A DNA stretch of 64,000 nt from a bacterium (GCA_043824255.1 JBDRTG010000047.1:99528-163527); one strand, 5' to 3'; positions 1 through 45,160 are shown, numbered from the stretch's first letter. Made by a program: numbers and translations. Notes: generated from the sequence alone by a model not told the origin.

Positions 1-1146
1 ACCTATTATTATGCCCAAAAAACAGATTAAAACAGGTTCTATCACTGAGGTTAATCCGTCTACTGCAGCATCAACTTCGGATTCGTAAAAATCAGCGATC
101 TTTGTCAACATATCCTCCAGAGCGCCTGTTGCTTCACCAACCGATATCATTCTGACAACCATTGTTGGGAAAAAGTTACTTTTACTAAGCGGCTCTGCAA
201 TGCTTTTCCCCTCTTTTACACCTATTCCAACACTGCTAAGAGTTTTCTCCAAAACCTTATTCCCTGAAGTAGCTCCCACTATTTCAAGCGCCTTAAGAAT
301 AGGAACACTGCTCTTTATCAGTGTACACAGCGTTCTTGCAAACTTTGCCAGAGCTACCTTTTTCATAAGGCTACCAAAAATAATTATACGAAGTTTCAAT
401 CCGTCAAACTGAAGTCTTCCTTTTTCAGTCCGCACATATTTACGTAATAAGAAGAAAGCAACAGCTAAGATTCCTGCTACAATCAGAAAATAATCTTTGA
501 GAATCTCGCTCGTTCCTATAAGTACTCTTGTCGGAAGAGGAAGAGTTCCGCCAAAAGCATCAAAAATATTTTTAAACGTTGGAACTACTTTCAATATTAA
601 AACCATAACTATAAGGATAGACATACCCGTAACCACCGCTGGGTACACAAGAGCAGATTTTACCTTTCTGGCAAGTTTGGCGGAATTCTCAAGATATGTT
701 GCAAGACGGTTAAGGATTTCATCCAATGTCCCGCTTTCTTCCCCTGCCCTTACCATGCTGACATAAAATTCCGAGAACACTTTTTGCTGTTTTAAGAGAG
801 CCTGAGAAAAACTTTCCCCTCCCTCCACATCATCTTCCAGTTTTCTAACAAGTGTTTTTAAAGAAGGATTTTCCATTTGCTCAGCAAGTGTATCCAGCCC
901 CTGAACCAGAGGCAATCCTGCATTAACCATTGTAGCCAACTGTCTGCTAAAGAGAATTAAATCATTGGACTTTACTTTAGTGCTTTTCTTAAATATAGAT
1001 GCTCTTTTTTTTTGTTCAGTTATAGAGACTATTGTTAATTGGTTAGCCCTGAGAGTGCTAACGAGATTTTTTTCGCTTTCAGCAGAATGAAGAGCTTCTA
1101 TTCTCTTTCCATCTTTATCAATCGCAATATACTTATATGTCGGCAT
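1..1146 (-). CDS. pilC: Type IV pilus / T2SS inner-membrane platform protein PilC/GspF. The 3' end of the gene runs off the window start.
   Basis: The minus-strand reading frame begins at ATG 1146..1144. Its translation, MPTYKYIAIDKDG...LPLVQGLDTLAEQ...GESFSQAL, has the duplicated GspF/PilC polytopic pattern. It lies immediately downstream of the ATPase gene. Confidence 0.8.
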   Translation of the reverse strand, partial: MPTYKYIAIDKDGKRIEALHSAESEKNLVSTLRANQLTIVSITEQKKRASIFKKSTKVKSNDLILFSRQLATMVNAGLPLVQGLDTLAEQMENPSLKTLVRKLEDDVEGGESFSQALLKQQKVFSEFYVSMVRAGEESGTLDEILNRLATYLENSAKLARKVKSALVYPAVVTGMSILIVMVLILKVVPTFKNIFDAFGGTLPLPTRVLIGTSEILKDYFLIVAGILAVAFFLLRKYVRTEKGRLQFDGLKLRIIIFGSLMKKVALAKFARTLCTLIKSSVPILKALEIVGATSGNKVLEKTLSSVGIGVKEGKSIAEPLSKSNFFPTMVVRMISVGEATGALEDMLTKIADFYESEVDAAVDGLTSVIEPVLICFLGIIIG

Positions 1147-1203: not shown

Positions 1204-2910
1204 TTACTCAGACGTTACGCGCAAAACTTCTTCTATGGTAGTCGTGCCCTTTTTAATTAGATCTATACCGCTTTCCTGCAATGTTCTCATTCCGCCTTTT
1301 ACAGCAGCTTCCTTAATCTCACCTGAAGTGGCCTTGTTCATAATTAGTTGCTTGATCTCATCATCTATCTTTAGTATTTCAACAACAGCAACTCTGCCTT
1401 TGTATCCAGTGTCATTACAAAGCTCGCAGCCCTTTCCTTTATATATTGTTAAATCTGATATTTTGGAAATTGGCTGTTGCAGAACATGGGCAAAATTCTC
1501 TTTTGCCTTTTCCTGCAGATCAATTTTTTCTTTGCAGTTTTCGCATATTTTTCGCATGAGTCTCTGCGCAGCCACCATTATTACGGAAGATGAGAGAAGA
1601 AACGGCTCAATCCCCATATCTATCAACCTTGTAATTGCTCCGGGAGCATCATTGGTGTGCAAAGTGCTGAAGACCAAATGACCTGTCAGAGCGGATTTTA
1701 TCGCAATATCAGCAGTTTCAAAATCCCTTATCTCTCCAACCATTATAATATCAGGATCCTGCCTTAATATAGATCGTAAGCCGCCGGCAAATGTCAGACC
1801 TATATCTGAGTGAGCTTGCACCTGATTGATTCCCTTTAGCTGATATTCTACAGGATCCTCAACTGTAATAATATTCTTAGTTGGTGTATTTATTTTGCTT
1901 AACGCAGAATAAAGCGTTGTGGTTTTACCACTACCTGTCGGTCCGGTTAGAAGGATCATTCCATGCGGTCTGGAAATAGATTCTGTAAATATTTCCAGCT
2001 CTTTTTCTCCAAATCCTAATTTCTCCAGATTCAGTGTTAAACTGCTCTTATCCAGAATACGCAATACCACCTTTTCCCCAAAAATTATTGGCAGAATTGA
2101 TACGCGAAAGTCTATTTCCTTATTATTCAATACAATCCTCATACGACCATCCTGCGGAAGCCTTCGCTCTGCTATATCCAGATTGGACATAATCTTTATT
2201 CTGGAGATTAGCGCAGCCTGAAGTTTTTTAGGTGGAGACAACCTCTCGTAAAGAACACCGTCAATGCGATAGCGGATGCGCAATGCCTTATCCTCCGGTT
2301 CAATATGAATATCGCTTGCTTTCTCCTTAATTGCCTGAGCGAGAATAAAATTAACCATTTTTACAACTGGAGCTTCCTCAGTTTCCCTTAAGAGTTTTTC
2401 TAAATCTAGTTCTTCCCTTTTCTCAGCAGGTTCCTTAATATCAATGTCCCTTAAAATCTCTTTCATATCAAAAGATACTTCATAATACTGGTCAATAGCA
2501 TTGAGAATATCCTTTTCTGTGGCTATTACAGGATCTATCTCGTATCCGGTAGTGCTTTTTAAATCGTCTGTAGCAAACACATTAAGAGGATCCAGCATGG
2601 CAATCGTAAGGGTTTTTCCTATCTTAGAGATTGGAATAATGGAATACTTTTTGGCAATTGTCTTCGGTATTGTTTCTATAACCTCTTTTGAAATTTTAAA
2701 TTTTGAAAGATTTATCGGAGGGATATTTAGTTGCTCGCTTAAGCACGCCATAAGGGTCTTCTCAGTAGCAAAGCCTTTTTTATAAATAATCCGGCTTAAA
2801 CTGCCCCCTTTTTCCCTTTGCTCTTGGAGTGCCTCTTTTAACTGTTCCTCTGTAATTATTCCTCCATCAAGCAGAATTCTTGACAGGGTGTCCTTTAAAG
2901 ACATAATCAT
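1204..2910 (-). CDS. pilB: Type IV pilus assembly / type II secretion ATPase (GspE/PilB family) with an N-terminal MshEN-like (T2SSE_N) domain
   Basis: 568 aa. It carries a Walker A motif (GPTGSGKTTTLYSAL), Asp/His boxes and a tetracysteine zinc motif (CENC...CELC). The N-terminus (LSRILLDGGIITEEQLKEALQEQ) matches the MshEN c-di-GMP-binding motif pattern. Confidence 0.9.
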   Translation of the reverse strand: MIMSLKDTLSRILLDGGIITEEQLKEALQEQREKGGSLSRIIYKKGFATEKTLMACLSEQLNIPPINLSKFKISKEVIETIPKTIAKKYSIIPISKIGKTLTIAMLDPLNVFATDDLKSTTGYEIDPVIATEKDILNAIDQYYEVSFDMKEILRDIDIKEPAEKREELDLEKLLRETEEAPVVKMVNFILAQAIKEKASDIHIEPEDKALRIRYRIDGVLYERLSPPKKLQAALISRIKIMSNLDIAERRLPQDGRMRIVLNNKEIDFRVSILPIIFGEKVVLRILDKSSLTLNLEKLGFGEKELEIFTESISRPHGMILLTGPTGSGKTTTLYSALSKINTPTKNIITVEDPVEYQLKGINQVQAHSDIGLTFAGGLRSILRQDPDIIMVGEIRDFETADIAIKSALTGHLVFSTLHTNDAPGAITRLIDMGIEPFLLSSSVIMVAAQRLMRKICENCKEKIDLQEKAKENFAHVLQQPISKISDLTIYKGKGCELCNDTGYKGRVAVVEILKIDDEIKQLIMNKATSGEIKEAAVKGGMRTLQESGIDLIKKGTTTIEEVLRVTSE

Positions 2911-3440
2911 AATTTTTCTTTATTTTCCTTTTCTCTCACTAACTGCTTAAAGTCAACATCTGTCATATATTCTTCTGTGGTTCTGGTGATTTTCTTACGC
3001 TTCCCTGGGCCAAAATAACGAGTAATAATATCTTCAATATCCTCTCCCCCACTGACAAAGATTCTCACACTGGAGTTAGTGGCAATCTTTACATCCTCAA
3101 TTGCAGCATCGTTTAGCGGGTCAGCCATGGCTAATACTATGATATTATCCATTTTATCTATAGGAATTAGGTGATAATGCCTTATGATTGATTCCGGAAT
3201 TAACTTGAGTATATCCTGATCAATCTCATAGTTTTTCAAAGGGAGATATGGGAATCCAAACTGAGAAGTAAGGGCGTTAACCACCTGTTCCTCAGTCGCA
3301 GATCCCAGGCTGACTAAAATCTGACCCAGAAAACCACCCTTTAGCTCCTGAATTTTCAATGCTTCATCCAGTTGTCGTTCCGTAATAACATCTCTCTCTA
3401 TAAGTATCTTTCCGAGTCGTTTTCTAATAGTTCTTGACAT
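2907..3440 (-). CDS. Stand-alone T2SSE_N / MshEN-type domain protein, a predicted c-di-GMP binder
   Basis: 177 aa. It has two tandem motifs, RLGKILIERDVITERQLDEALKIQ and LGQILVSLGSATEEQVVNALTSQ, that resemble the 24-aa MshEN c-di-GMP motif. Its stop overlaps the pilB start by 4 bp. Confidence 0.6.
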   Translation of the reverse strand: MSRTIRKRLGKILIERDVITERQLDEALKIQELKGGFLGQILVSLGSATEEQVVNALTSQFGFPYLPLKNYEIDQDILKLIPESIIRHYHLIPIDKMDNIIVLAMADPLNDAAIEDVKIATNSSVRIFVSGGEDIEDIITRYFGPGKRKKITRTTEEYMTDVDFKQLVREKENKEKL

Positions 3441-3444
3441 AGTA

Positions 3445-4368
3445 TTATCCCGGAAACATAATCACTTTGTTCCCTTTTCCTTTCTTAGCCTGTTCCATTG
3501 CGCGATATAATTTATTATTTAATTCTTCTGCAACGTCGCCATCAATGGGGTTGGCAACTATACCTGCGCTTACAGTAATCTTTGTATCTTTTATTACACT
3601 TTTTGCATCTGGGATAGATTCATTGGCAACCGCTTTTCTTACTTTTTCAGCAAGAGCATAAGCTTCCTTTTTATTGATCTCAGGGAGAATAATGCAGAAT
3701 ATGGTATCCTTGCAACGAGCTACCTTGTCAATATCTCTTGCATTCTCCTTCAGGATACCTGCAATCTTCTTTATAACCTTATTCTTAATATTTCCGCCAA
3801 GTTTTTTCAAATATACATCCAGATTGTCAACATCAAACCCAATTATAGAACATGGACGCTCATACATAGCTGCCCGTTTCAACTCTTCGTTCAAATATTC
3901 TTCGTAATATTTCAAGTTATATAAGCCCGTTAATTTGTCTGTAATGGTTAAGGAATTGGTTTTTTCAAGCAATCTATTGATTTCATAGCTGAGACCGCTT
4001 ATTTTTGCCTCAGTTTGATAAAGATCAGACATATCCCCTCTAAGCTTTTTTGTAATTTTATCCAATGAGACGCTTAATTCGTCCATTCCCACTTCTTTTA
4101 ATTCCGGATCATCTGCTATTTTAGCTTTTGCCATCATCTTCACTATATTTGTATTAATTTTTTTAATCAGAAACATTAAGAACGCTATAACACCAAGCAG
4201 AATAGCTATGCTGACATAAAGCACAACCTGATCCCATGATAATGCGTATGTGCCTAAAAAAACAAATGCTCCTATCAATATCAGCATAATAATTACAAGA
4301 GCAATGTTTATAAAAATATTACGATGGGCATGTGCCTTTGTTATCGACATATCTTCGCTTCTCTTCAT
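3445..4368 (-). CDS. Membrane-anchored GGDEF-domain protein with a degenerate active site (KDTIF in place of GGDEF) and an intact RxxD I-site. It is predicted to be a c-di-GMP receptor rather than a cyclase.
   Basis: Two N-terminal TM helices are present. The GGDEF-fold landmarks are LTGLYNLKYY, FDVDNLDVY, the ARDIDKVARCKDTIF block aligned to RxxD...R-Y-GGEEF, ITVSAGIV and LYRAMEQAKKGKGNKV. Confidence 0.7.
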   Translation of the reverse strand: MKRSEDMSITKAHAHRNIFINIALVIIMLILIGAFVFLGTYALSWDQVVLYVSIAILLGVIAFLMFLIKKINTNIVKMMAKAKIADDPELKEVGMDELSVSLDKITKKLRGDMSDLYQTEAKISGLSYEINRLLEKTNSLTITDKLTGLYNLKYYEEYLNEELKRAAMYERPCSIIGFDVDNLDVYLKKLGGNIKNKVIKKIAGILKENARDIDKVARCKDTIFCIILPEINKKEAYALAEKVRKAVANESIPDAKSVIKDTKITVSAGIVANPIDGDVAEELNNKLYRAMEQAKKGKGNKVIMFPG

Positions 4369-4383
4369 AGTGATAGCTCCTTA

Positions 4384-5781
4384 TTATCTTGATATTTTAT
4401 CAATATTCAGATTTATATCAGTCCCTTTCCATATTTTTGTCGGTAGTTTTTTATCAGGATTTGTTTTTCCCCAGGTTTCATCCATTTGCTTAACCCTTGC
4501 TTTTTCCTCTTCAGTCAATTCAGTCTCCTCTGTTACAATAGTAGGAGTGATCAGAACAATTAATTCCATTCTTGTCTTAGTGGTGGTGTTCTTTTTGAAA
4601 AGATATCCAAGTAATGGAATATCTCCGAGTATGGGTACCTTATACACAGTAACGGTGTTATAATTTCGCCTGAGCCCGCCAACTATAACCATACGGCCAT
4701 CCTTGGTCAATAGATTCGTCTCTAATGAGCGAGAGTCTATTATGGGTTCGGAACTATATTCACCTACTGAAAAACTATGTTTTGGCTTAACAAGCATGGA
4801 GACAAACCCGTCACTTGTTATGTGGGGCTTTACAGTAAGATATGTTCCCACCTCTTTAAAGTCAATTGTTGTCATCACTGTTCCATCGGGATTAGTTGTA
4901 ATTTTTGTATATGGAATACTCTCTGTTATTTCTATATTCGCTTCCTGATTATCAAGAACTAAGAGCCTGGGTCGGGCAAGTATTTCCACATCTGCGTTAT
5001 ATCTTAACCATTGAAGAGTCGCTTCAATATCCCACAGACCGACACCGAAGCCGGTAATGGCATGCTGGAGACCTGTAGTCAGAGACTGCCCAAACATGCC
5101 CTCAGTCACTGCTGTTCCGAGTTTCGCTGTCCCAGTTTTTGTAAAATTCCAGTCAATACCGTACTTGGTCTGTCCTGTTATTTTTACATCTACAATAGCT
5201 GCTTCAATAAGAACCTGAGGAGTTTTAACATCCAGTCTCTGCGCAATTTCTGCTATTTGGTCAATATTCTCCTGAATATCAGTAACTATCAGGGTATTTG
5301 TGCGTGAATCGCTCTCAATTTTCCCTCTTGATGAAAGCATTTTTGTAACTGATTTCTGGAGCTTTTCAACGTCTGCAAAATTTAGAGAGAAAATTCTTGT
5401 TACTAACTCTGCCTCTGCCTTTGTAGTCTCCTTAATGGCAAGCTGTTCCCCCTTTATTTTTTTCATCTTCTCTGCAGTCATAACCTTTATCAAATTTCCC
5501 TCTCGCTCGTAAGCATACCCGCTGACATCAAGAATTGTCTGTAACGCTTGTTCCCAACCTACATTTTGAAGAAGAAGCGAAACTGTTCCTCTCACTTCTT
5601 CTCCGGCAACTATATTGACGTTACCCTTATGGGAAAGCATTCTTATAACATTGCGTATATCAGCGTCTTTAAGGTCTAATGTGATCTTTTCGCCTTCCAG
5701 CTGATTACCCGCATATGAGACAGAACTAAAAACCAGACCAACACACATTGCAAGTACTAGAAAAACATGTAATTTCCTCAT
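4384..5781 (-). CDS. pilQ: Type IV pilus secretin PilQ (GspD family)
   Basis: It has a signal peptide and N0-like domains. The C-terminal secretin signature is VYKVPILGDIPLLGYLFKKNTTTKTRMELIVLITPTIV. Confidence 0.9.
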   Translation of the reverse strand: MRKLHVFLVLAMCVGLVFSSVSYAGNQLEGEKITLDLKDADIRNVIRMLSHKGNVNIVAGEEVRGTVSLLLQNVGWEQALQTILDVSGYAYEREGNLIKVMTAEKMKKIKGEQLAIKETTKAEAELVTRIFSLNFADVEKLQKSVTKMLSSRGKIESDSRTNTLIVTDIQENIDQIAEIAQRLDVKTPQVLIEAAIVDVKITGQTKYGIDWNFTKTGTAKLGTAVTEGMFGQSLTTGLQHAITGFGVGLWDIEATLQWLRYNADVEILARPRLLVLDNQEANIEITESIPYTKITTNPDGTVMTTIDFKEVGTYLTVKPHITSDGFVSMLVKPKHSFSVGEYSSEPIIDSRSLETNLLTKDGRMVIVGGLRRNYNTVTVYKVPILGDIPLLGYLFKKNTTTKTRMELIVLITPTIVTEETELTEEEKARVKQMDETWGKTNPDKKLPTKIWKGTDINLNIDKISR

Positions 5782-6233
5782 AATTTATCTCCACTCATTT
5801 TTACACTATATTCCTTATTCATATATCTGATCACTATTTCTTCTCTGGTTATTGATACAATTTTGCAGTTGCTGATACTATCTCCTATCGCGACAATCTT
5901 ATCGTTTATAATAGCAAGGGGCTTGATCTCATCAAACAGAACCCCCTCTATTTTCATCTCGGGCAATTTTGAACTTATAAAACTCCAGCCAGTCGGGGCC
6001 ATAACGGTCTTATTCTCTGATATAAGAGGGATAAATGGGTCTCTTCTTCCATGAGTGTTATACACAAAAACAGGTTCTCTATTCTTAGGTTCTGAGATTT
6101 TTTTTGTTGAAATATTAACCTTCTTTTGTGTTGATAAACTCGCATTATCCTGCGCAGGCTTTGAACAGCCGGAAGATAAGAGAAGGAACAAAGACACAGA
6201 GCAAAGAAAAACTCTAAACATTGTTTTGGTCAT
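5778..6233 (-). CDS. pilP: Pilus assembly lipoprotein PilP
   Basis: It has a lipobox (LLLSSGC) and is 151 aa. It sits between pilO and pilQ with 4-bp overlaps. Confidence 0.7.
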   Translation of the reverse strand: MTKTMFRVFLCSVSLFLLLSSGCSKPAQDNASLSTQKKVNISTKKISEPKNREPVFVYNTHGRRDPFIPLISENKTVMAPTGWSFISSKLPEMKIEGVLFDEIKPLAIINDKIVAIGDSISNCKIVSITREEIVIRYMNKEYSVKMSGDKL

Positions 6234-6778
6234 TTGAATTTTGTCTCCTGAAAAATGAATATATCCAGATAAATATCTGCATTATGTTTTAACGCATCCT
6301 TTTTATCTGATGTAATATTTATATGATTTATCTTAACGAATCTTTCCAGATTCTCCAGTTTGTTCACGAATCTGGCTATCTGATGATAGCCACCCTTAAT
6401 ACCAAGCGCTATCGGGTATTCAGTATATATGCTGGTTTTACCTGATGTCTTTAACTTGCCTGGATCAATAGACATTAATTTAACTTTATGTTCATTAGCG
6501 ATATCTGTCAGTGAGGATAGAAAGTCAGGGATTTTATCCTCTCCGGGCATGCGTTTCTGGTATTCTTTTATTAGTTTTTGCACTGTCTGAAATTCACGTT
6601 CTAACTGAGGTTTTTTAGAAACCATAATCCTTGCTTTTTGTATTTCAGCTTTTTTCTGTGTTATGTTTTTTCTCAAGAGAGAAATCCGTGCAATCTGAGG
6701 TGTTAACAAATAATAATAACCCAGAAGAATTCCCAGGGCTGCAATAACAAATAAGATAATTCGTTCATTCTTTTTCAT
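6230..6778 (-). CDS. pilO: Pilus assembly protein PilO
   Basis: It has a single N-terminal TM segment, a coiled coil and a ferredoxin-like C-terminus. It sits between PilN and PilP. Confidence 0.7.
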   Translation of the reverse strand: MKKNERIILFVIAALGILLGYYYLLTPQIARISLLRKNITQKKAEIQKARIMVSKKPQLEREFQTVQKLIKEYQKRMPGEDKIPDFLSSLTDIANEHKVKLMSIDPGKLKTSGKTSIYTEYPIALGIKGGYHQIARFVNKLENLERFVKINHINITSDKKDALKHNADIYLDIFIFQETKFK

Positions 6779-7446
6779 TGCTTAAATCTACATCCTATTT
6801 TAAATGACATAATATCTACATCTGCTACACTAACCCGACAGGTAGATACAAGGTTGACACTGGAGAAGTCGCTTGAAAAAATACTATCCTCCCTGACTTT
6901 TTTAATTAAGTCTCCAATGCGCCTTGTCATATCTTCATTTTCTCTTGACAGAGCCATGCCCTCCAGAATAAAGACATTGTAGCTCTTCTTAACCTTTTTG
7001 CCTGCGTCAGGACTCGCTTTCGTTGAGATACCTGCCTTTCCATGACCACCAGGTGTTACAGAAACCATTTCAGTCCTTTTTTCAACAGCCGTCTTTGTAA
7101 GCCACGTCTGGGTAGGCAATATATCGCTTAACTGGTTTAATCTCTTTGCCCATATGATTCGGGAGTGAATAAGTTTTTTCAAAAGAGATATCTTTCTATT
7201 AATAGATTTCTTTGCGCTTTCCAACTTCTCCGCCTCACGCATTATCGGTTCTAATTTAGAATATTCAACTACCAGTTTGTTATGCGTCCATCCCATGAAC
7301 TTTGCGCTGGAAAAACTGATAAGATAAATAAGAACCATTACAACAACCAGTATAACGCCCCCTGTTATGAAGATTTCCATTCCGGGTAGTTTTAGACTTC
7401 TTCTAGCTTTTCTTAACTCAATGGGGAGTAGGTTTACAGTAATCAT
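6775..7446 (-). CDS. pilN: Pilus assembly protein PilN
   Basis: The N-terminus, MITVNLLPIELRKARR, precedes a TM segment. This is the PilN-type N-terminus that binds PilM. Confidence 0.75.
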   Translation of the reverse strand: MITVNLLPIELRKARRSLKLPGMEIFITGGVILVVVMVLIYLISFSSAKFMGWTHNKLVVEYSKLEPIMREAEKLESAKKSINRKISLLKKLIHSRIIWAKRLNQLSDILPTQTWLTKTAVEKRTEMVSVTPGGHGKAGISTKASPDAGKKVKKSYNVFILEGMALSRENEDMTRRIGDLIKKVREDSIFSSDFSSVNLVSTCRVSVADVDIMSFKIGCRFKQ

Positions 7447-8495
7447 TTTATGCCTCTCAGAGCAAGCCCGACAGCAACTGTTAAAAATGGATAAAGTCTT
7501 TTTATTCTCTCTGCATTGATTTCGTCTGATATTTTCAGGTTATTGGTTGCATTCCAAGTGTGCGTTTCTACTCCAATTTTTTCATGCATGATATCGCTTA
7601 TTATGGAAATCTGTGAACTGCCTCCGCTCAAGTATATATCTGCGATGTTCTTATCAGGAACTTGACTTTCATAGTAATCAAACGACATGTGTATCTCATT
7701 AACGAGATTACTCGTAATATGTTTTATCGTCTCTGTTACTTCCTTGGATCTGCTTTTTGCTTTTTTTGTCTCTTCAGCTTTTTTAATATCAATACCTAGA
7801 TCCTCACTAATAGCCTTGCTATAATCCGTGCCCGCAATATTTATATCCCTTGTGAGCCTTGAAGTACCATTATCAAGTATGCTTATATTTGTCATCTGAG
7901 CGCCAATATTTATAAGCGAAATTACATTATCCTTTTTCTTAAAGACAGAGTTGAGCGCATGTTCAAAGGCATTTATAGCGGCGAAGGAATCAATATCAAT
8001 AGCAACCGGCTCCAGATTACAGGCTTTTAACAGTTCCAATCGTTGATTGATTAAGTCTTTCTTAACAGCGACAAGCATTACTTCTATCATGTTTGTCTCG
8101 CTTGCTATGTTATCTAAAACTTGAAAGTCAAATTCCACTTCATTCATATCAAAAGGAATGTGTTTTGCAGCTTCATACTTCAAAGAAGCGCTTAAGTCTT
8201 CTTCTGACATCTTTGGAACACGAATATATCTTACAATTACCGATTGTCCCGAAACTCCTATAGTAACCCTAGTGGTTGCGATATTCGCTTCTATAGAAGC
8301 CTTCTTAATAGCAGTAATTACACTATCCTTGTTATCTCCAATTATTTCAGCTGCGCCAACTTTACTCAAGCGCAAGGACTCTCCATCTCCGGTAAGTTCG
8401 ACAATCTTGACAGCACTGCTTCCTATATCTAATCCTAAACTGGTTCTGGATTTAGGCTTTGCGCTGAAAAGTTTTGTAATTGATTTAGGTATCAT
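7443..8495 (-). CDS. pilM: Pilus assembly ATPase-like protein PilM (actin/FtsA fold)
   Basis: It has the LGLDIGSSAVKIVEL phosphate-1 motif, is 350 aa and overlaps pilN. Confidence 0.85.
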   Translation of the reverse strand: MIPKSITKLFSAKPKSRTSLGLDIGSSAVKIVELTGDGESLRLSKVGAAEIIGDNKDSVITAIKKASIEANIATTRVTIGVSGQSVIVRYIRVPKMSEEDLSASLKYEAAKHIPFDMNEVEFDFQVLDNIASETNMIEVMLVAVKKDLINQRLELLKACNLEPVAIDIDSFAAINAFEHALNSVFKKKDNVISLINIGAQMTNISILDNGTSRLTRDINIAGTDYSKAISEDLGIDIKKAEETKKAKSRSKEVTETIKHITSNLVNEIHMSFDYYESQVPDKNIADIYLSGGSSQISIISDIMHEKIGVETHTWNATNNLKISDEINAERIKRLYPFLTVAVGLALRGIK

Positions 8496-8533: not shown

Positions 8534-9544
8534 TTAATACTCCTGCCAGGAACCGCTTACTATACGCCACGGCAGGTTGTTGTCAAAAGCATTTGCTACA
8601 TTGACAGAATTATAAACTACCAAGGGTCTTCCTGTAGATATTGTTGCAGATGTATCAGCTTGAGTCTGGACAAGAACTGACCCGGAAATCTCGGGATTTC
8701 CACTTATTGTCAGATTTCCAAATACATACATTATACCCTCAAATGTGCCGCCTGCTACATCAAGATCACCGTCTACTACAAGGATTCCGCTTCCATACCA
8801 TCCTGTCGTTGTAACCTTAAACGATGAATTATCCTGAAATTTAACCCAGGTAATTCCATCCACGTCTGAATTGTTCGGAGGGTCAGTATAGTTTCTGGTT
8901 GATATGCCTTCCATTTCTTCTTTCGTCAGGCCAAATATATCTTCAATTGATGGAAAAGGAGCATTACTTATTGGCGGACTGCCTGTTATTTCCCCAGAAC
9001 CATCTGTAGTGGCTGTAAAACCCGCTGGAACCGTTACGCCCGTACTGGTACCTCCGGCTATTAGTCCATTTCCACTGACCAGAACATTACCACCCGCTTG
9101 AAGTGCAGAATTAACAGCTCCTGGATTTCCAATTCGTTCCGCATCAACTTTCACTGTCCTTTCTACCTTGTCTATATTTGTCACGCTCGGAGTATATCCG
9201 GTTGCTGTGATAGCCGCACTTGTTGATGTTACGTTTGATACGCTTATTGTATAATCTCCTATAACCTTCCCATCTTGGGTCTGGAAGGAAAGAACGGTCT
9301 TTGTGTAAACTGCTCCTGAAGTGTCCCAGCCAACCCATGAACCCTGGCCAAATCCTAGCTCCCATAATGCCGCCTGAACTCCTGATTCTGCAAGATTCCT
9401 TGCTGCAGATAGACGATAGGACCTGATTGTAAGCTTTTTTTGGAAAACGACTGTGGAAAGATACGCTCCGGCTATAATGGCAATAATAAGCATCACTATA
9501 GCTGAAATAACCAATACGCTTCCGCGTCTATTTCTATACATCAA
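8534..9544 (-). CDS. PilX_N-like pilus-associated protein, a putative tip or minor pilin adhesin
   Basis: It has an N-terminal hydrophobic helix followed by LAESGVQAALWELG (PilX N-terminal pattern). Its C-terminal half has G/S/T-rich beta-helix-like repeats. It is a paralog of the upstream gene. Confidence 0.55.
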   Translation of the reverse strand: MMYRNRRGSVLVISAIVMLIIAIIAGAYLSTVVFQKKLTIRSYRLSAARNLAESGVQAALWELGFGQGSWVGWDTSGAVYTKTVLSFQTQDGKVIGDYTISVSNVTSTSAAITATGYTPSVTNIDKVERTVKVDAERIGNPGAVNSALQAGGNVLVSGNGLIAGGTSTGVTVPAGFTATTDGSGEITGSPPISNAPFPSIEDIFGLTKEEMEGISTRNYTDPPNNSDVDGITWVKFQDNSSFKVTTTGWYGSGILVVDGDLDVAGGTFEGIMYVFGNLTISGNPEISGSVLVQTQADTSATISTGRPLVVYNSVNVANAFDNNLPWRIVSGSWQEY

Positions 9545-10701
9545 TCATACCATTGAGTAACCGTAACAGTTCCAGGAAATCCCCCGGGATTTACATTCGC
9601 CAAGGCTTCATCATAATGAATGCCGCCGTTTCCACTATCTTGTACTGTATCCCCTACAAATGCGCCAAAAAGGTCTCCATTCCCTGAAACCTTCAACTCG
9701 GCTTTCGGGGCATATATTGCTCCTGCAAAGTCTCCATTACCTGTAAATTGCACACTTGTACAACTATCTGTTCCATAAAGCAGACAATCGGATGGGGTGC
9801 CAGGATTTGAGATACCATTCCCAGTTATATGACAAGTTCCTGAGACGTAAATAGTAACCTCGCCACTAATTATTAATGTTGCATTTCCTGTAATCTGTAT
9901 TGATGTAAACCAATATGTTCCGGATGTAAGGGTCTGTGTATTATTCCCTGATATTGACAAACCACCACTACTACTTACACCAGCTGGGACAGTGACTGAT
10001 GGCATTGGAAACAGAGTGGATGCAGCTGTTTTTTGCCCATTCAATACAGCGTTTCCAGAAGTGGTTATTGCAGTATTTACATCCCCACCCGGACCAATCT
10101 GAGCATTTCCATTAACTATAGCATTCCCACTTAAAGCGACGGCTCCGGATGATGTTGCATTAGTGCCCACAGAACCGTTGCTACCGGGTGACTGACTGGC
10201 ATACGTTCCATTGTCAGAGTTATAGCTATCGGACGCACCGTTACCTGAAAGAGTAACGCTCTTATCTCCAAATATTCCTTGTGTAAACGGCGAACCGCTT
10301 ACCTGAAGATTAGCATTTATTAACTTGGAAAACCTGTTTATGTCAGTTACATTGGGAGCTGTTCCTGTAGCTGTAACTGTAGGAGTACCTGTAGCTGAGT
10401 TGTTAACTGTGACCGTAACACTTCCCACTGCTCTGCCGCCTGCGTCTGATAGAGTAATGGTTTGGACAGGATCTCCGTTTGCATCAACTGCCCAGGTGGT
10501 AATATCGCCATATGCATATTCATAAATTGCTCTTTCTATGCCTGCTTCTGCAAGATTGACCGCAGCTGTATGCCGATATGACCTATTTGTCATTCTATTC
10601 TCAAAAACAATTCTCGAGAGATAGGTACCCGCTATGACAAATAAGGATGTAGAAACCAAAGCAGTTAGTACCAGAATGCTACCTTTTCTGTTCAGTTTCA
10701 A
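9541..10701 (-). CDS. PilX_N-like pilus-associated protein with an extensive G/S/N/T-rich repeat region, a putative adhesin
   Basis: The N-terminal helix is followed by LAEAGIERAIYEYAYG. Repeats include SGNGASDSYNSDNGTYAS and GNAIVNGNAQIGPGGDVNTAITTSGNAVLNG. Confidence 0.55.
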   Translation of the reverse strand: MKLNRKGSILVLTALVSTSLFVIAGTYLSRIVFENRMTNRSYRHTAAVNLAEAGIERAIYEYAYGDITTWAVDANGDPVQTITLSDAGGRAVGSVTVTVNNSATGTPTVTATGTAPNVTDINRFSKLINANLQVSGSPFTQGIFGDKSVTLSGNGASDSYNSDNGTYASQSPGSNGSVGTNATSSGAVALSGNAIVNGNAQIGPGGDVNTAITTSGNAVLNGQKTAASTLFPMPSVTVPAGVSSSGGLSISGNNTQTLTSGTYWFTSIQITGNATLIISGEVTIYVSGTCHITGNGISNPGTPSDCLLYGTDSCTSVQFTGNGDFAGAIYAPKAELKVSGNGDLFGAFVGDTVQDSGNGGIHYDEALANVNPGGFPGTVTVTQWYD

Positions 10702-10716
10702 ATAACATCACCTCCA

Positions 10717-11271
10717 TTATTTATTCCTTAATTTTACAGACGTATTTAAAGTTTTTGTATGTGTTTTATTCATAACAGTTGCTGTGCTTGTAATTGATAT
10801 TGTTATGCGACTAGCGCCAGCAAGAGTTGGAAGATAGCCAAATGCCAGGTTAGATATATTTGAACTTATATTCTTGGTTCCTGAGGTTCTTGTGCTTCCA
10901 ACTGCTGCCCAGGTTGTTTTCTCTAAGTTAGTGCCATTTAATGCATACCTAAAATAATCATTAGATCCGGTTATTGGATTTCCACTGGCATCGATTGAAG
11001 ATACCTCCAGGACCAACTGCTGGAGCGTACTTGCAGGTACACTTCCTATTGCAGTACTCACTACATCTCCTGCACGCCTTGTGTCCTGACTTATATTATC
11101 CAGAACTAATCTCACATTTTTTTGTGTATCAAGATAACGAGAGTCAAAAACAAACATTTGATTGCCTCTTATAAATAGAAATAAAACGGCACTCAATATC
11201 ACTATTCCGATTGAAGCAGCAATAATAACTTCCATTATCGTAAAACCGCCTGAAAGCCGCTTCTTTTTCAT
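10717..11271 (-). CDS. Minor pilin with a prepilin-type N-terminal cleavage/methylation domain (PilW-like)
   Basis: MKKKRLSGG|FTIMEVIIAASIG is a class III signal with Glu at +5. Confidence 0.7.
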   Translation of the reverse strand: MKKKRLSGGFTIMEVIIAASIGIVILSAVLFLFIRGNQMFVFDSRYLDTQKNVRLVLDNISQDTRRAGDVVSTAIGSVPASTLQQLVLEVSSIDASGNPITGSNDYFRYALNGTNLEKTTWAAVGSTRTSGTKNISSNISNLAFGYLPTLAGASRITISITSTATVMNKTHTKTLNTSVKLRNK

Positions 11272-11272
11272 T

Positions 11273-11713
11273 TTAGATGCCTCCGTTAGTTACAAGCGTA
11301 GTAATGCTTCTACTGAATGCTTGCCCCTGCGCCCCTATCCACTGAACTGTTATACTGACCTGTTTTATATTGCTGTCAATAAAATCAGAAATTGAAAGCA
11401 ATACTACTCCGCTACTAAGATTTGCAAGTCCCTGTGTAACATTTCCTGTGATAGTAGTAAAATCCTGATTGCTGAATGTTCCCCAACCAGTTATTGTTGC
11501 AAATGAACTGTCGCGTACTATTTCCATTGCGTCCTGCGCTATCTTTGTAGCGGTAGAGATTTCAGCTGTTCTTCTAATCGTTGCAGGTCCATTGGAAAAC
11601 GCAGTAAAAAGGCCAATTAAACCAACACTCAGAATCAAAATGGCTATCATGGTTTCTATTAACGTAAACCCACGATTTAATTTAACTATCCGTATGTCTT
11701 TGCGCTTTTTCAT
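11273..11713 (-). CDS. Minor pilin with a prepilin-type N-terminus (PilV-like)
   Basis: The N-terminus is LNRG|FTLIETMIAILILSVGLIG. Confidence 0.7.
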   Translation of the reverse strand: MKKRKDIRIVKLNRGFTLIETMIAILILSVGLIGLFTAFSNGPATIRRTAEISTATKIAQDAMEIVRDSSFATITGWGTFSNQDFTTITGNVTQGLANLSSGVVLLSISDFIDSNIKQVSITVQWIGAQGQAFSRSITTLVTNGGI

Positions 11714-11737
11714 TTGTCATCTCCAAAACTAGTCCTA

Positions 11738-12187
11738 TCATAGTGAGAATGGCTGTGCTGCAACAAAAGCTGCTCCATGTCCTCTGCCAGCTACTCCGTT
11801 CGGACACGTAATCCGGATTTTCCCAACTGGCGTTGAATCTGCCATATATCCAGCACCGGCTCCTATGGGACAGGTGGGGACGGTCTTTAGGTATCCTGTA
11901 GCAGCCACTAGTCCCCATGTTCCTGTTGCAGGAGCTGCGTTCCACACAATCGCCCCAGCTGCAAATCCAGCGCCGCCATTAGTCGCATCAAGATTTTCCT
12001 CTATACACACCTGTTCAAGCCCGGATGCAATCTGTTTCATGTTGTTTGTACATACAACATCTCTGGATCTCGTTCTATTCTTCAGGAAATTAGGTATAGC
12101 TATAGTTAATAAAAGCGCAATGATTGCAACAACAATCATAATTTCAACAAGTGTAAAACCTCTGCCCTTTCCCCAAACAACTACCAT
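11738..12187 (-). CDS. Type IV pilin (PilA/GspG-like), second tandem copy
   Basis: GRG|FTLVEIMIVVAIIALLLTIAIPNF. The C-terminus has Cys pairs (VPTCPIG...ITCPNG). Confidence 0.85.
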   Translation of the reverse strand: MVVVWGKGRGFTLVEIMIVVAIIALLLTIAIPNFLKNRTRSRDVVCTNNMKQIASGLEQVCIEENLDATNGGAGFAAGAIVWNAAPATGTWGLVAATGYLKTVPTCPIGAGAGYMADSTPVGKIRITCPNGVAGRGHGAAFVAAQPFSL

Positions 12188-12214
12188 CCAACACCCCTTT
12201 CGAAATATGACAGC

Positions 12215-12234
12215 GGCGGGAGAAAACTCCCGCC
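12215..12234 (-). terminator. GC-rich stem-loop between the two pilin genes, a possible partial terminator or attenuator
   Basis: ggcgggag-aaaa-ctcccgcc forms an 8-bp perfect stem. It is followed on the minus strand by only a weak U-tract (tgtcatatttcg). Confidence 0.4.
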
Positions 12235-12272
12235 ACTATTATATGTCCTTTCAGGCCTTTCAGCAAGTAGCT

Positions 12273-12710
12273 TTATTGCAGTGTATATGGATTATTAGTA
12301 GCCTGAAAATTTGGCCCATGGCTTGTCAGACTTGGACAAGTAATCTGAAATACCCCAACTGTTGATGAAGCCGCTGTATAAGCACCAGATGCTATAGGAC
12401 ATGTAGGAGCTGTCTTCAGGTATGCTGTACTGCCTACTATTCCCCATGTTCCTGTTGCAGGAGCTGCGTTCCATGTAATCGAAGCAATTCCAGCACCAGC
12501 ACCAGTAGCGTCAAGATCTTCCTCCATGCACACCTGTTCAAGGGCTGATGCAATCTGTTTCATGCCATTTACGCATACAGCATCTCTGGATCTACTTCTG
12601 GACTTGATGAAGTTAGGAATAGCTATCGCTGCTAAAAGCCCAATAATCGCTACAACAATCATAATCTCAACAAGCGTAAAACCTCTTTTACTGCGAAGTA
12701 ATCTAATCAT
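12273..12710 (-). CDS. pilA: Type IV pilin (PilA/GspG-like). It is promoter-proximal and the likely major pilin.
   Basis: KRG|FTLVEIMIVVAIIGLLAAIAIPNF. The C-terminus has Cys pairs. It lies directly downstream of a GG-N10-GC promoter and a GGAGG ribosome-binding site. Confidence 0.85.
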   Translation of the reverse strand: MIRLLRSKRGFTLVEIMIVVAIIGLLAAIAIPNFIKSRSRSRDAVCVNGMKQIASALEQVCMEEDLDATGAGAGIASITWNAAPATGTWGIVGSTAYLKTAPTCPIASGAYTAASSTVGVFQITCPSLTSHGPNFQATNNPYTLQ

Positions 12711-12758
12711 TCTCTTTCACCTCCTCTTCAATCAATTTTTTCTCTCGCCTTATATAAC

Positions 12759-12778
12759 AAGCATTTTTCGTGCCAAAG
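12759..12778 (-). promoter_or_regulatory. Sigma54 (RpoN)-type -24/-12 promoter upstream of the pilin operon
   Basis: The minus strand reads cTTTGGCACGaaaaATGCt, with TGGCAC followed by N10 and then GC. It lies about 45 bp upstream of the pilin ATG. Confidence 0.6.
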
Positions 12779-12931
12779 ATATCAGGGCACATCCCCCTGA
12801 ATCCCCCTTCGAAGGGGGACAGTTTCGCCGTAGGCGGAATTAGGAGGATGTTTTCCCCGCCCGAAAACGGGTTCAAAATATTGAATCCCTACAAAAAATT
12901 TTAGTTATCAGGCAAAATATTTTGACATATT

Positions 12932-12965
12932 TGTGAAATAAGCAAAAAAAATTGCCTATTTCACA
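12932..12965. promoter_or_regulatory. 9-bp perfect inverted repeat TGTGAAATA-N16-TATTTCACA in the divergent intergenic region. It is a candidate regulator or enhancer-binding site.
   Basis: The inverted repeat is seen directly in the sequence. It lies about 170 bp upstream of the sigma54-type promoter and about 50 bp upstream of the histidine kinase start. Confidence 0.4.
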
Positions 12966-13016
12966 ATAAAATATAAAGCTTCTTGCAAATTCCCTAAAAA
13001 AGTTCTAACATCATTC

Positions 13017-14621
13017 ATGCTGGAGAATCAAAAGGAAACAAAAATTACCATTTTGACAATTTTTGATGAAGAATGTGGAGCTCGGGAACTTCCTTTGGAG
13101 AAAAAGCTTATTACTATTGGAAGACTGGCAGATAATGATATTATAATTTCGGACAAGAGTATATCCGGAAAACATCTTAAACTCACTTTTTTGAATAATG
13201 ACTGGATATTGGAAGATATGCATTCTACGAATGGCAGCTTTGTAAATGGAGAACTTGTTGAAGAAAAGAAGCTGGACGACGGCGACGAGATAGTTATAGG
13301 CAAAACAAGAATTCTATTCGGGGAAACATCTTCTTTCCCGCATCCAGAAGAGAGCTCTTTTACTATTATAAAGGCTGTAACGCCTAGCGCTGTTATTCCC
13401 CCCTCTTATGAAACTGCAAGTAACGAGGAGTTAAAGAGAACTCATAAAATATTAGCTACCCTTTATAAGGCCAGCGAACTTCTTAGTTCTGCACTTAAAT
13501 TAGAAGACGTCCTGAATAAAATTCTGGATTTGATTTTTCAACACATTAGTGCTGACCGAGTTCTTATTATACTCAAAGATGAATTAACAGGTAAACTTGT
13601 TCCTAAAGCAGTGAAGAAAAGAGACGAAAAAGATAGGGCAGAATTAACCGTAAGCCACAGTATTATGAGTAAGGTTTTAGATGAAGGTAAATCGGTAATC
13701 TGTTCGGATGCTTTAGAAGACAAAAGATTTAAAGAACAAATGAGTATTATCCAGCATCAAATTCATTCAGCAATGTGTGTCCCTCTAAGAACAAAAGACA
13801 GAGCCTTGGGCGTAATTTATGCTGATACACTCATGATTAAAGGGGCTTTTAACACCGAAGATTTAAACTTGCTTACTGCATTAGGTAACGAAGCTGCGCT
13901 GGCTATAGATAATGTGCGTTTATATGAAAAAAATCTTAAGGCAGAGCGATTAGCTGGTATAGGACAGGCCATAACCGGCATGGCACACTATGTCAAGAAT
14001 ATTCTCGTGGGGATGGATGGTGGTGGCATCTTAGTAGATATGGGAATAAAACAAAAAAACAATACTTTAATGAATAAAGGGTGGAAGTTAGTTAAAGCCT
14101 CTACAAATAAAGTAAGAGACGTGGTGATGGACATGCTAACCTATTCTAAAGAAAGAAAGCCGCAGCTGCAGCCATGTAATCTAAATGATGTCGTAGATGA
14201 AGTTATAGAGCTAATGAGTAAAAAGGCTGAAGATGCGGGCATTAAACTGCATGCTCATCTTGAGGAAAATATTGGACAGTTCTTATTAGATCCTCAAGTC
14301 ATCCATCGTTCTCTGCTTAACTTGATAAATAATGCTTTTGATGCGATGGAGAAAGATGGGAAAATTACAATTGCTACAGAGTATATAGTTGAGGGGGATC
14401 AGCTTAAATTGTCTGTGTCTGATACAGGATCCGGAATACCTGAAGATGTATTAACAACTCTTTTTACACCTTTTTATTCAAGCAAGGGATTGAAGGGAAC
14501 AGGTCTCGGATTAGCAGTGACACATAAGATAATTAAAGAACATGGTGGAAGAATAGATGTGAATTCCGAGGTCAGCAAAGGGACTACCTTCAGTATATTT
14601 TTACCTGCAAGAAAAGAATAA
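13017..14621 (+). CDS. Cytoplasmic sensor histidine kinase with N-terminal FHA and GAF domains
   Basis: The FHA domain is ITIGRLADNDIIISDKSISGKHLKL...STNGSFVNGE. A GAF region follows. The HisKA segment is MAHYVKNIL, and the HATPase N, G1 and G2 boxes are LINNAFDAM, SDTGSGIP and GTGLGLAV. There is no TM segment. Confidence 0.8.
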   Translation: MLENQKETKITILTIFDEECGARELPLEKKLITIGRLADNDIIISDKSISGKHLKLTFLNNDWILEDMHSTNGSFVNGELVEEKKLDDGDEIVIGKTRILFGETSSFPHPEESSFTIIKAVTPSAVIPPSYETASNEELKRTHKILATLYKASELLSSALKLEDVLNKILDLIFQHISADRVLIILKDELTGKLVPKAVKKRDEKDRAELTVSHSIMSKVLDEGKSVICSDALEDKRFKEQMSIIQHQIHSAMCVPLRTKDRALGVIYADTLMIKGAFNTEDLNLLTALGNEAALAIDNVRLYEKNLKAERLAGIGQAITGMAHYVKNILVGMDGGGILVDMGIKQKNNTLMNKGWKLVKASTNKVRDVVMDMLTYSKERKPQLQPCNLNDVVDEVIELMSKKAEDAGIKLHAHLEENIGQFLLDPQVIHRSLLNLINNAFDAMEKDGKITIATEYIVEGDQLKLSVSDTGSGIPEDVLTTLFTPFYSSKGLKGTGLGLAVTHKIIKEHGGRIDVNSEVSKGTTFSIFLPARKE

Positions 14622-14637
14622 TTTTTACAGAATAGCT

Positions 14638-15024
14638 TTAATCCAAGAATTCTTTTAGAAGCTCTATAATTTTTGCAATACTTCCGGTTTGCTTACCAAA
14701 CTCTTTGTGAACATAATGTGCGCCTTCAAGAACTTTATTATCAAACTGTTCCTTTGTAAGACCAGTATGAAAAATTATTGGTATTTGTTCATATTGAGGA
14801 TTTTCCTTAAGATAGTCTCTTACAGTGCCACCATGCCCTACCATAACCATATCCAGTATGGCAGCATCAATATGTGGCTTCTTGGTGCTAAGCAGGTCTA
14901 TGGCATTTTTACCATTAGGAGCGTCAAACACCTCGTAACTACAGCCAGCTTCTAATATTGTCTTTAATGCCTCCCTCAGCTCATTATCATCCTCTACTAT
15001 CAAAACAGTTTTCTTGCCCATCAT
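14638..15024 (-). CDS. Single-domain response regulator (CheY-like receiver)
   Basis: LIVEDD, D in ILDMVM, T in HTG and K are present. It is 128 aa with no output domain. Confidence 0.8.
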   Translation of the reverse strand: MMGKKTVLIVEDDNELREALKTILEAGCSYEVFDAPNGKNAIDLLSTKKPHIDAAILDMVMVGHGGTVRDYLKENPQYEQIPIIFHTGLTKEQFDNKVLEGAHYVHKEFGKQTGSIAKIIELLKEFLD

Positions 15025-15102
15025 CTCCCTCCTATCGCTCTTATATCTCTTTCTCTTAATAAAATTCTACTACATTATCCTGAGAACTGTCAAATCCGTG
15101 TC

Positions 15103-17389: not shown

Positions 17390-17480
17390 CGGAGAGGGAG
17401 GGATTCGAACCCCCGGTCCCGAAAAATCAGGACAACAGATTTCGAGTCTGCCGCTTTCAACCGGACTCAGCCACCTCTCC
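17390..17480 (-). tRNA. tRNA-Ser (anticodon CGA) with a long variable arm
   Basis: The reverse complement is GGAGAGGTGGCTGAGTCCGGTTGAAAGCGGCAGACTCGAAATCTGTTG...GGGGTTCGAATCCCTCCCTCTCCG, which folds as a cloverleaf. Confidence 0.8.
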
Positions 17481-39960: not shown

Positions 39961-40037
39961 TGGTCGGGGCGACTGGATTCGAACCAGCGACCTCTTGAAC
40001 CCCATTCAAGCGCGCTACCAAGCTGCGCCACGCCCCG
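39961..40037 (-). tRNA. tRNA-Pro (anticodon GGG)
   Basis: The reverse complement is CGGGGCGTGGCGCAGCTTGGTAGCGCGCTTGAATGGGGTTCAAGAGGTCGCTGGTTCGAATCCAGTCGCCCCGACCA, which folds as a cloverleaf. Confidence 0.8.
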
Positions 40038-44915: not shown

Positions 44916-45077
44916 ACCAAAATTCCTCCTTTTTTATCTATTAATATTATAGATTATATATAATTATATATAACATTGCATCATGATTTTTGTCAAGCCA
45001 CTGTTATGGCAAAATGGACAAAATAAATTGACTACGGATATATCTTATGATAGCCTTGCGTTAAAGAACTAAACAGT

Positions 45078-45160
45078 ACCGGGAGCGAGATTTGAACTCG
45101 CACAGGATTTCTCCCACTAGCCCCTCAAGCTAGCGTGTCTGCCAATTTCACCATCCCGGC
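45078..45160 (-). tRNA. tRNA-Leu (anticodon GAG)
   Basis: The reverse complement is GCCGGGATGGTGAAATTGGCAGACACGCTAGCTTGAGGGGCTAGTGGGAGAAATCCTGTGCGAGTTCAAATCTCGCTCCCGGTA. It has a long variable arm. Confidence 0.75.

Follow-up and report, generated by a model that had tools for sequence, protein, structure and literature searches.

How might a type IV pilus extension motor respond to cyclic di-GMP (c-di-GMP) when the domain suited to bind it is encoded in a gene of its own? This question is raised by a 64-kb stretch of bacterial DNA (GCA_043824255.1, JBDRTG010000047.1:99528-163527; the window, meaning the whole stretch), in which a gene for a stand-alone MshEN protein (SA) of 177 residues lies between a gene for a GGDEF-domain protein and pilB, all within one type IV pilus operon. 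Fused MshEN domains are established relays of c-di-GMP to MshE, to PilF and to the PilB of Myxococcus and Clostridium (PMC11656802, PMC8389850), and Xanthomonas PilB receives c-di-GMP input in trans at its N1 domain (N1D) through PilZ-FimX (PMC8389850). The role of the N1D was nevertheless described as poorly understood in a 2024 review of PilB cofactors (PMC11656802), and the module bears on how N1D-based c-di-GMP binding is converted into motor control in PilB-type ATPases.

We lean, if only slightly, towards reading the three genes as a lineage-typical regulatory module in which SA would serve as a trans-acting c-di-GMP sensor of the extension motor. Folds, motif states, synteny and a complementary pattern of conservation carry this reading, and together they suggest that sensing of the signal has passed from the motor to a protein of its own. 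An earlier reading of the window, made from sequence only (the sequence-only reading), had already placed the three open reading frames (ORFs) correctly:

3445-4368, minus strand: GGDEF gene, 307 residues (Pfam GGDEF)
2907-3440, minus strand: SA gene, 177 residues (NF053729 and PF05157)
1204-2910, minus strand: pilB, type IVa pilus extension ATPase, 568 residues (TIGR02538, T2SSE and MshEN)

It had predicted three c-di-GMP-binding elements between pilQ and pilB; two genes do lie there, but the third element is PilB itself. Every motif string that it quoted is found in the sequence, as are the 4-nt gap (TACT) separating the TAA stop of the GGDEF gene from the ATG of the SA gene and the ATGA overlap of the SA gene with pilB.

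The stand-alone protein is a complete MshEN domain

SA matches the NCBIfam model NF053729 ("c-di-GMP_motif, MshE-related") over residues 8-60 (E 4.7e-16) and Pfam MshEN (PF05157) over residues 61-147 (E 8e-18). Its AlphaFold2 (AF2) model, with a predicted local distance difference test score (pLDDT) of 83.7, comprises a four-helix bundle (helices 2-15, 21-34, 38-44 and 50-61) and an alpha/beta subdomain. Among PDB structures, Foldseek ranks MshE with c-di-GMP (5HTL, E 7e-11) closest to this model, followed by holo PilF GSPII-B and by the Xanthomonas PilB N-domain in the PilZ complex (7LKM). The protein is laid out as follows:

3348-3419, minus strand: MshEN motif I, residues 8-31, RLGKILIERDVITERQLDEALKIQ
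3261-3332, minus strand: MshEN motif II, residues 37-60, FLGQILVSLGSATEEQVVNALTSQ
3000-3260, minus strand: MshEN_C / T2SSE_N1-type alpha/beta subdomain, residues 61-147 (Pfam MshEN; AF2 pLDDT >90)
2910-2999, minus strand: charged C-terminal tail, residues 148-177, collinear with the linker between the PilB N1D and N2 domain (N2D)

The two 24-residue motifs, with ELKGG (residues 32-36) as a 5-residue spacer in between, were compared with the consensus (R/K/L)LGxxhhxxGhhxxxxLxxxLxxQ, whose relaxed form allows G, A or S at position 10. Both have glycine at position 3 (G10 and G39, equivalent to MshE G11 and G40), hydrophobic triads at positions 2, 17 and 21 (L9/L24/L28 and L38/V53/L57) and glutamine at position 24 (Q31 and Q60). 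Motif I, with R8 at position 1, fits the consensus at all key positions but 10, and motif II has the fitting G46 at position 10 and F37 at position 1, a hydrophobic residue outside the listed R/K/L. Across the SA family, position 1 of motif II is likewise hydrophobic (L or F), and in PilF GSPII-B the hydrophobic L196 at the equivalent position accompanies very high affinity (PMC11731258).

The sequence-only reading had described a protein made of two MshEN-like motifs, which are indeed present; the description understates a whole MshEN domain followed by a 30-residue tail. The alpha/beta subdomain, in which FPYLPL, PID and MADPLN are highly conserved in the SA family, is likely a protein-docking surface. 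The tail is of low confidence in the AF2 model, and most family members (~148 residues) do without it, although a few distant ones (P0032, P0094 and P0102) have a divergent version. BLASTP aligns the protein collinearly with residues 1-173 of PilB at 32% identity, and SA is a paralogue of the PilB N-terminal region rather than a piece of PilB.

The motor has lost both motif glycines

PilB of the window is complete, with N1D, N2D and C-terminal domain: it scores 699.7 bits on TIGR02538 against a cutoff of 675.65, residues 9-567 covering model positions 2-563 of 564, and it matches Pfam MshEN at residues 61-144 and T2SSE at residues 176-564. Its own motif region differs from that of SA at the glycines:

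2731-2889, minus strand: PilB motif region, residues 8-60 (53 residues), with T8-L-S10 and S37-L-S39

Both motifs are x-L-G in MshE and in the PilB/PilF proteins of Geobacter, Myxococcus and Thermus, whereas the window PilB has serine in place of each glycine. Mutating the motif Gly, Leu and Gln positions in MshE weakens or abolishes binding (PMC5013675): G11L shows no detectable c-di-GMP binding, G40I binds 72-fold more weakly, and any side chain at the motif glycine is reported to clash with the ligand (PMC5013675 supplement). The isolated MshEN_N subdomain binds c-di-GMP by itself, and the canonical PilB/GspE proteins PA4526, VC2424, VC2732 and XCC0660 are non-binders (PMC5013675 supplement). 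We regard the window PilB motif as degenerate because it has lost the glycines whose replacement by any side chain reportedly brings this clash.

Glycine retention is reciprocal between stand-alone protein and motor

We compared the module across loci numbered in the form L002; most Omnitrophota loci among L004-L085 have two tandem full-length PilB paralogues after the SA gene, here PilB1 and PilB2, whereas the window clade has one. Both position-3 glycines are present in 81/82 SA proteins, in none of the 80 PilB1 and in 1/66 PilB2, and neither is present in 1/82, 63/80 and 44/66, respectively. In the SA family, G10, G39 and Q31 are each kept in 81/82 members and Q60 in all 82, and the motifs of PilB1 and PilB2 are both degenerate, PilB2 being the more divergent paralogue. 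The sequence-only reading had counted the PilB N-terminus as a third c-di-GMP-binding element, a claim that the TLS and SLS motifs and the loss of at least one glycine in every PilB1 speak against; a T2SSE_N/MshEN match on PilB, it follows as a caution, need not mean a c-di-GMP receptor. Lysine at position -1 of SA motif I (residue 7 of the window protein) is invariant in the family, at 81/82, and might stack in place of the canonical arginine.

In a neighbour-joining tree of N-domains, the SA proteins form one pure clade (85/85), and their mean pairwise identity is 61.5%, as against 48.7% for the N-domains of PilB1 and 44.5% for those of PilB2. LG stands in both motifs of 21 of the 120 closest PilB homologues; the three of these that were inspected (L086, L087 and L092) belong to pilB-pilT-pilC-pilS-pilR clusters that lack an MshEN-only gene. 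Four degenerate PilBs were also inspected (L088, from a Verrucomicrobia metagenome-assembled genome (MAG); L089; L090; and L091, from a Ratteibacteria MAG), and directly upstream of each lies an MshEN-only gene whose xLG/LxG motifs are intact, L090 and L091 also carrying a HAMP-(GAF-)GGDEF gene and pilT. The MshEN-only protein of L088 (4882-5973) is 363 residues long, with an N-terminal extension of ~215 residues before a canonical RLG/LIG MshEN domain.

The module is standard in Omnitrophota

Omnitrophota are ultra-small, probably host-dependent bacteria. A distribution scan of GTDB, in which each species was represented by one genome, gave at least 575 tblastn-confirmed stretches that encode an SA relative, counted irrespective of ORF length. 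The best 80 loci all come from Omnitrophota or from MAGs labelled "bacterium", and the SA homologues make up a family of ~148 residues whose named members are only from Candidatus Omnitrophota or from MAGs of the Planctomycetes-Verrucomicrobia-Chlamydiae (PVC) group. Similarity of the module would place the window clade in or near Omnitrophota.

With loci annotated from local phmmer seeds and raw counts that ignore kinship, a near-universal order emerged over 80 Omnitrophota species loci: degenerate GGDEF, sometimes PilT, MshEN (~148 residues), PilB1, PilB2, PilC and sometimes PilMNOPQ. In 79/79 loci pilB comes right after the SA gene, at a median distance of 5 nt. Directly upstream of the SA gene lies that of PilT in 50 loci and that of the GGDEF protein in 25, and in 59/65 loci a GGDEF gene is one of the nearest two on this side. 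The GGDEF protein typical of the phylum has ~470-500 residues in HAMP-GAF-GGDEF arrangement. In the ~75 loci outside the window clade the module stands between mreCD/PBP2/rodA/radical-SAM genes and pilB2-pilC, beside pilT. The window clade (L002, L006-L009) is rearranged into pilMNOPQ, a short transmembrane GGDEF protein gene, the MshEN gene (177 residues), a single pilB and pilC.

This distribution bears on two claims of the sequence-only reading. It had called the arrangement non-standard, which is right relative to model organisms but not within Omnitrophota, where it is the standard; and it had proposed gating at the motor-secretin interface, whereas adjacency to pilQ is confined to the small clade of the window, so that a functional tie to the secretin was rejected.

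The locus L002, whose small protein is 82% identical to that of the window, has features of its own: an MNT/HepT-type toxin-antitoxin pair (3288-3907) between a pilP-like gene and pilQ, a gene for a second, PDZ-GGDEF protein that separates the short GGDEF gene from the MshEN gene, and a 2020-residue RHS/YD-repeat protein (10263-16325) directly after pilB.

The GGDEF partner is dead, and its I-site is a local feature

The 307-residue protein encoded upstream of SA matches Pfam GGDEF (E 9e-27), residues 142-300 covering model positions 2-160 of 161. Its AF2 model (pLDDT 77; helices 3-42, 45-84 and 95-142) has WspR, PleD and the coiled-coil DgcB as top Foldseek matches (E ~1e-16), in agreement with the fold assigned by the sequence-only reading. 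The hydrophobic N-terminal helices 3-42 and 45-84 would form a membrane hairpin. Sites were assigned by phmmer against the PDB and by gap-free alignment to PleD, and cover the active site (A-site) and the inhibitory site (I-site):

residues 95-142 of the GGDEF protein: stalk helix (AF2 model)
3727-3738, minus strand: I-site-like R211-D-I-D214, gap-free on PleD R359-A-I-D362
3697-3711, minus strand: degenerate A-site K220-D-T-I-F224, on PleD G368-G-E-E-F372, in place of GG[DE]EF

Two further claims made from the sequence, of a dead A-site and of an RxxD that matches the I-site, are borne out by this alignment, in which KDTIF stands for GGEEF, RDID falls on PleD R359-D362 without gaps, and the guanine-binding residues are lost as well (PleD N335 to L187, D344 to N196). 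R218 (PleD R366) and D179 and D181 (PleD D327 and D329) are retained, and K242 at the position of PleD R390, the secondary arginine (PelD R402), is a conservative change. The I-site does lie upstream of the A-site as had been said, at the canonical spacing of five residues (KVARC) and not at four. Because the A-site and the guanine-binding residues are lost, the protein is to all appearance catalytically dead and no cyclase; c-di-GMP binding at its I-site is plausible. All 17 orthologues (66-100% identity) have R[DEK]ID and KDxxF, and the PDZ-GGDEF paralogue in L002 has RNID and KDASF.

The wider family divides these two features. We ran 68 positional equivalents of the GGDEF protein through a motif parser, of which 62 were parsed and 6 were not. 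The A-site is degenerate in 56/62 (SGDTF, GDNEF, ADDEF and others), with [AS]GDEF in five and GGDEF in one, and the position of PleD N335 is never asparagine in the aligned rows. RxxD occurs in only 10/62, eight of them from the window clade, most others having TEVD. The conserved feature, as these alignments have it, is the dead GGDEF domain and not the I-site. RxxD is nearly limited to the window clade, so that neither the ancestral nor the general role of the GGDEF partner can be to bind c-di-GMP at an I-site. The PelD/PopA-type receptor proposed by the sequence-only reading thus holds for the layout of the window protein but not as a general role.

Two pilus clusters, L058 (13863-19058) and L062 (5969-9979), contain apparently active cyclases, namely a REC-GGEEF protein and AGDEF-STAND-HEAT giants, which keep the N335, D344 and RxxD equivalents. 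The giants, GGDEF(AGDEF)-AAA_16(STAND)-HEAT proteins of 1336-1425 residues, have intact catalytic and I-site residues. The presence of such active-looking cyclases supports a c-di-GMP link to the pilus genes of the phylum. L058 also has a second MshEN-only gene in its cluster.

The pilus operon and the remainder of the window

The pilus genes form one long type IV pilus operon on the minus strand. Upstream of the module, and downstream of pilB, it comprises:

11273-12710, minus strand: three N_methyl pilins
8534-11271, minus strand: three more ORFs, 9541-10701 with DUF7305
7443-8495, minus strand: pilM
6775-7446, minus strand: pilN-like
6230-6778, minus strand: pilO
5778-6233, minus strand: pilP-like
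4384-5781, minus strand: pilQ secretin (TIGR02515, 300 bits; Pfam Secretin, Secretin_N and STN)
1-1146, minus strand: pilC platform protein, partial, running past the window start (Pfam T2SSF twice, E 1e-62)

Between pilQ and the GGDEF gene lie 15 nt with an AAGGAG ribosome-binding site; consensus matches to internal promoters and terminators between the genes were no commoner than in shuffled sequences. Between the pilins and pilM, two large TTG-start ORFs (8534-9544 and 9541-10701, minus strand) each encode an N-terminal hydrophobic segment, and the product of 9541-10701 combines DUF7305 with an ice-binding-like adhesive domain; both are candidates for pilus-associated adhesins or minor-pilin-like proteins.

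Divergent from the pilin end of the operon lies a gene for an FHA-GAF-HATPase_c sensor kinase (13017-14621, plus strand), adjoined by one for a Ser/Thr protein kinase with TPR repeats (15103-17286, minus strand); the two kinases could be regulators of the pilus operon. No further GGDEF gene was found within the window, and the other window ORFs that we looked at are housekeeping genes (SHMT, DXR, RseP, IspG, ProS, SecA, GpsA and Der). The only Rfam matches at threshold are three tRNA genes on the minus strand:

17390-17480: tRNA gene
39964-40037: tRNA gene
45077-45160: tRNA gene

A proposed trans-acting sensor and its alternatives

The mechanism that we favour would begin with duplication of the PilB N-terminal domain, followed by subfunctionalisation, SA being an ancient paralogue: the motor-borne copy would have lost ligand contact, and the SA copy would have kept the c-di-GMP-binding four-helix bundle. 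We infer that the SA N-subdomain binds c-di-GMP and that its conserved N1-type C-subdomain attaches to PilB, or else to the PilM/PilC platform, the usual docking site of the PilB N1D, by analogy with GspE N1-GspL and with Xanthomonas PilB(N1)-PilZ-FimX. Docking would then either promote engagement of the extension motor or block it, by activation or competitive inhibition. The dead GGDEF protein would be a membrane-tethered partner. In the window clade, where RxxD is kept, this partner too may be a c-di-GMP binder; through most of the phylum it could not be one via the I-site, and its role there would more likely be that of a scaffold or of a signal input, most partners having HAMP-GAF.

A bolder version is offered tentatively. 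In Omnitrophota and some neighbours, here the Verrucomicrobia and Ratteibacteria MAGs, the sensor split off by duplication may have become an obligatory subunit which, with a nucleotide-blind, membrane-tethered dead GGDEF protein, would act as a clutch that picks PilB1, PilB2 or PilT for PilM/PilC. Such a clutch, if real, would give type IV pili a control layer of three parts that has not been described before.

Several observations pull against a trans-acting sensor. Motif I of the window SA has D17 at position 10, where G, A or S is allowed, and position 1 of motif I in the SA family is mostly Q or T, not R/K/L. The window PilB keeps all motif leucines and both glutamines and scores 51 bits on NF053729, above the cutoff of 38; since the MshE mutants carry Leu or Ile where PilB has Ser, weak c-di-GMP binding by PilB is conceivable. 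The contrast set outside Omnitrophota is small (three loci against four), and the counts of gene order and conservation take no account of kinship. Moreover, the 64-kb window yielded no active diguanylate cyclase or phosphodiesterase, and an Rfam scan of it yielded no c-di-GMP riboswitch or other structured RNA beyond the three tRNAs.

Some of these points also count in favour of two alternatives. That SA serves the motor independently of any nucleotide, as a structural subunit, adaptor or decoy, with an extra N1-type domain docking on PilM/PilC or PilB and motifs kept for folding of the bundle, seems unlikely to us, although the C-subdomain with FPYLPL, PID and MADPLN is its most conserved part, GspE N1 domains that dock on GspL (2BH1 and 4PHT) are among the fold matches, and the usual Q or T at position 1 of motif I fits such a role. 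The bundles of PilB1 and PilB2 fold without these glycines and glutamines, which are near-invariant in SA alone (81/82 and 82/82, against 0/80), and invariance so limited is the expected signature of ligand contact and not of fold upkeep. Three parallel receptors, with a binding PilB N-terminus, SA as an additional or redundant site and the GGDEF protein as a PelD-like I-site receptor, would accord with the PilB score on NF053729, with its leucine cluster and glutamines, and with RDID on the I-site, invariant in the 17 orthologues. We nonetheless find this picture quite improbable, given that serine occupies both position-3 sites of PilB and T or S both position-1 sites, that the MshE substitutions cost all or most of the binding, that no PilB1 keeps both glycines and that RxxD is missing in 52/62 positional GGDEF equivalents.

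The remaining two alternatives carry very little weight. An active cyclase supplying the motor with a local c-di-GMP pool would explain the full-length Pfam match to the GGDEF fold and the retained D179, D181 and R218, yet KDTIF replaces GGEEF, the N335 and D344 equivalents are L and N, and the same decay runs through all orthologues and 56/62 positional equivalents; the idea is very improbable and, at the sequence level, in effect refuted. We give next to no credence to an artefact in which a gspE/pilB pseudogene, frameshifted or duplicated, would have left the 177-residue ORF as an N-terminal fragment, as its collinearity with the first 173 PilB residues might suggest. The sequence-only reading had argued against such a fragment, and rightly so: the downstream PilB is full-length with an N-terminal domain of its own, and SA is a separate gene in 85 loci, monophyletic and evolving more slowly than the PilB N-domains.

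Should SA indeed be a trans-acting sensor, the module would offer sensor and motor naturally apart, with a ligand-binding domain, an ATPase whose N1D is blind and a putative partner in the membrane that can each be purified separately and mixed. The complementary glycine pattern also dictates which mutants suit such work, S10G/S39G for PilB and G10L/G39I for SA. For Omnitrophota, an uncultured phylum whose pili probably play a part in attaching to hosts or surfaces, SA is a candidate c-di-GMP output.

Comparison with known systems

In the literature we found no account of a stand-alone MshEN cofactor of PilB, the nearest precedent being PA3740 (Wang et al. 2016, PMC5013675), nor one of c-di-GMP control of Omnitrophota pili, and no description of the phylum-wide synteny, the reciprocal retention and loss of glycines or the association with a dead GGDEF protein. 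MshEN-only and tandem-MshEN proteins as such are common, with 37,605 profile matches in a metagenomic protein library and many of ~150 residues among the top 150. The best profile matches include proteins of 1000-1345 residues with 4-7 tandem MshEN stretches and others of 290-470 residues with 2-3 MshEN stretches and no room for an ATPase; these poly-MshEN architectures go beyond the (MshEN)4-T2SSE listed in 2016.

SA shares with V. cholerae MshE (5HTL) and with the c-di-GMP-binding PilB proteins of Myxococcus, Clostridium and Chloracidobacterium the same fold, two 24-residue motifs with a 5-residue spacer, the key Gly, Leu and Gln residues and a type IV pilus extension ATPase as target. In those proteins the sensor is fused to the motor and acts in cis, whereas here the intact sensor is separate and the copy fused to PilB is without both glycines. 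Unequal competence of duplicated MshEN-type domains serving one motor is known from T. thermophilus PilF, whose GSPII-A is a non-binder and whose B and C domains bind; the hydrophobic start of SA motif II (L or F) recalls its GSPII-B (L196). Unlike in PilF, where all copies stand in tandem in the ATPase, the competent copy is here detached and encoded directly upstream.

P. aeruginosa PA3740, which combines MshEN with a divergent T2SSE_N1 and has no ATPase, resembles SA in architecture and is a characterised c-di-GMP binder (PMC5013675 supplement). It differs from SA in its beta-/gamma-proteobacterial distribution and its highly divergent N1 subdomain and, unlike SA, is not described as a member of a pilB operon (PMC5013675 supplement). 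The comparison with PelD, PopA and SgmT concerns the GGDEF protein: that of the window likewise combines a dead A-site with RxxD at the canonical 5-residue spacing and is, like PelD, membrane-anchored. It departs from these receptors in having Lys at PleD R390, in an RxxD that the wider family does not keep, and in having no link to polysaccharide synthesis or proteolysis. As for complementary decay of a partner ATPase, we know of none for PA3740.

The FimX-PilZ-PilB system of Xanthomonas and the FimX-PilB system of P. aeruginosa match the proposed module in logic, with a non-binding PilB N1 domain, a signal that arrives in trans and the involvement of a degenerate GGDEF protein, and in Xanthomonas the PilB N1 domain is the docking site (PDB 7LKM-7LKO). 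There the receptor is an EAL domain and the bridge a degenerate PilZ protein; here, in a cluster with no EAL or PilZ gene, the trans-acting component would be an MshEN paralogue of the motor's own N-terminal domain.

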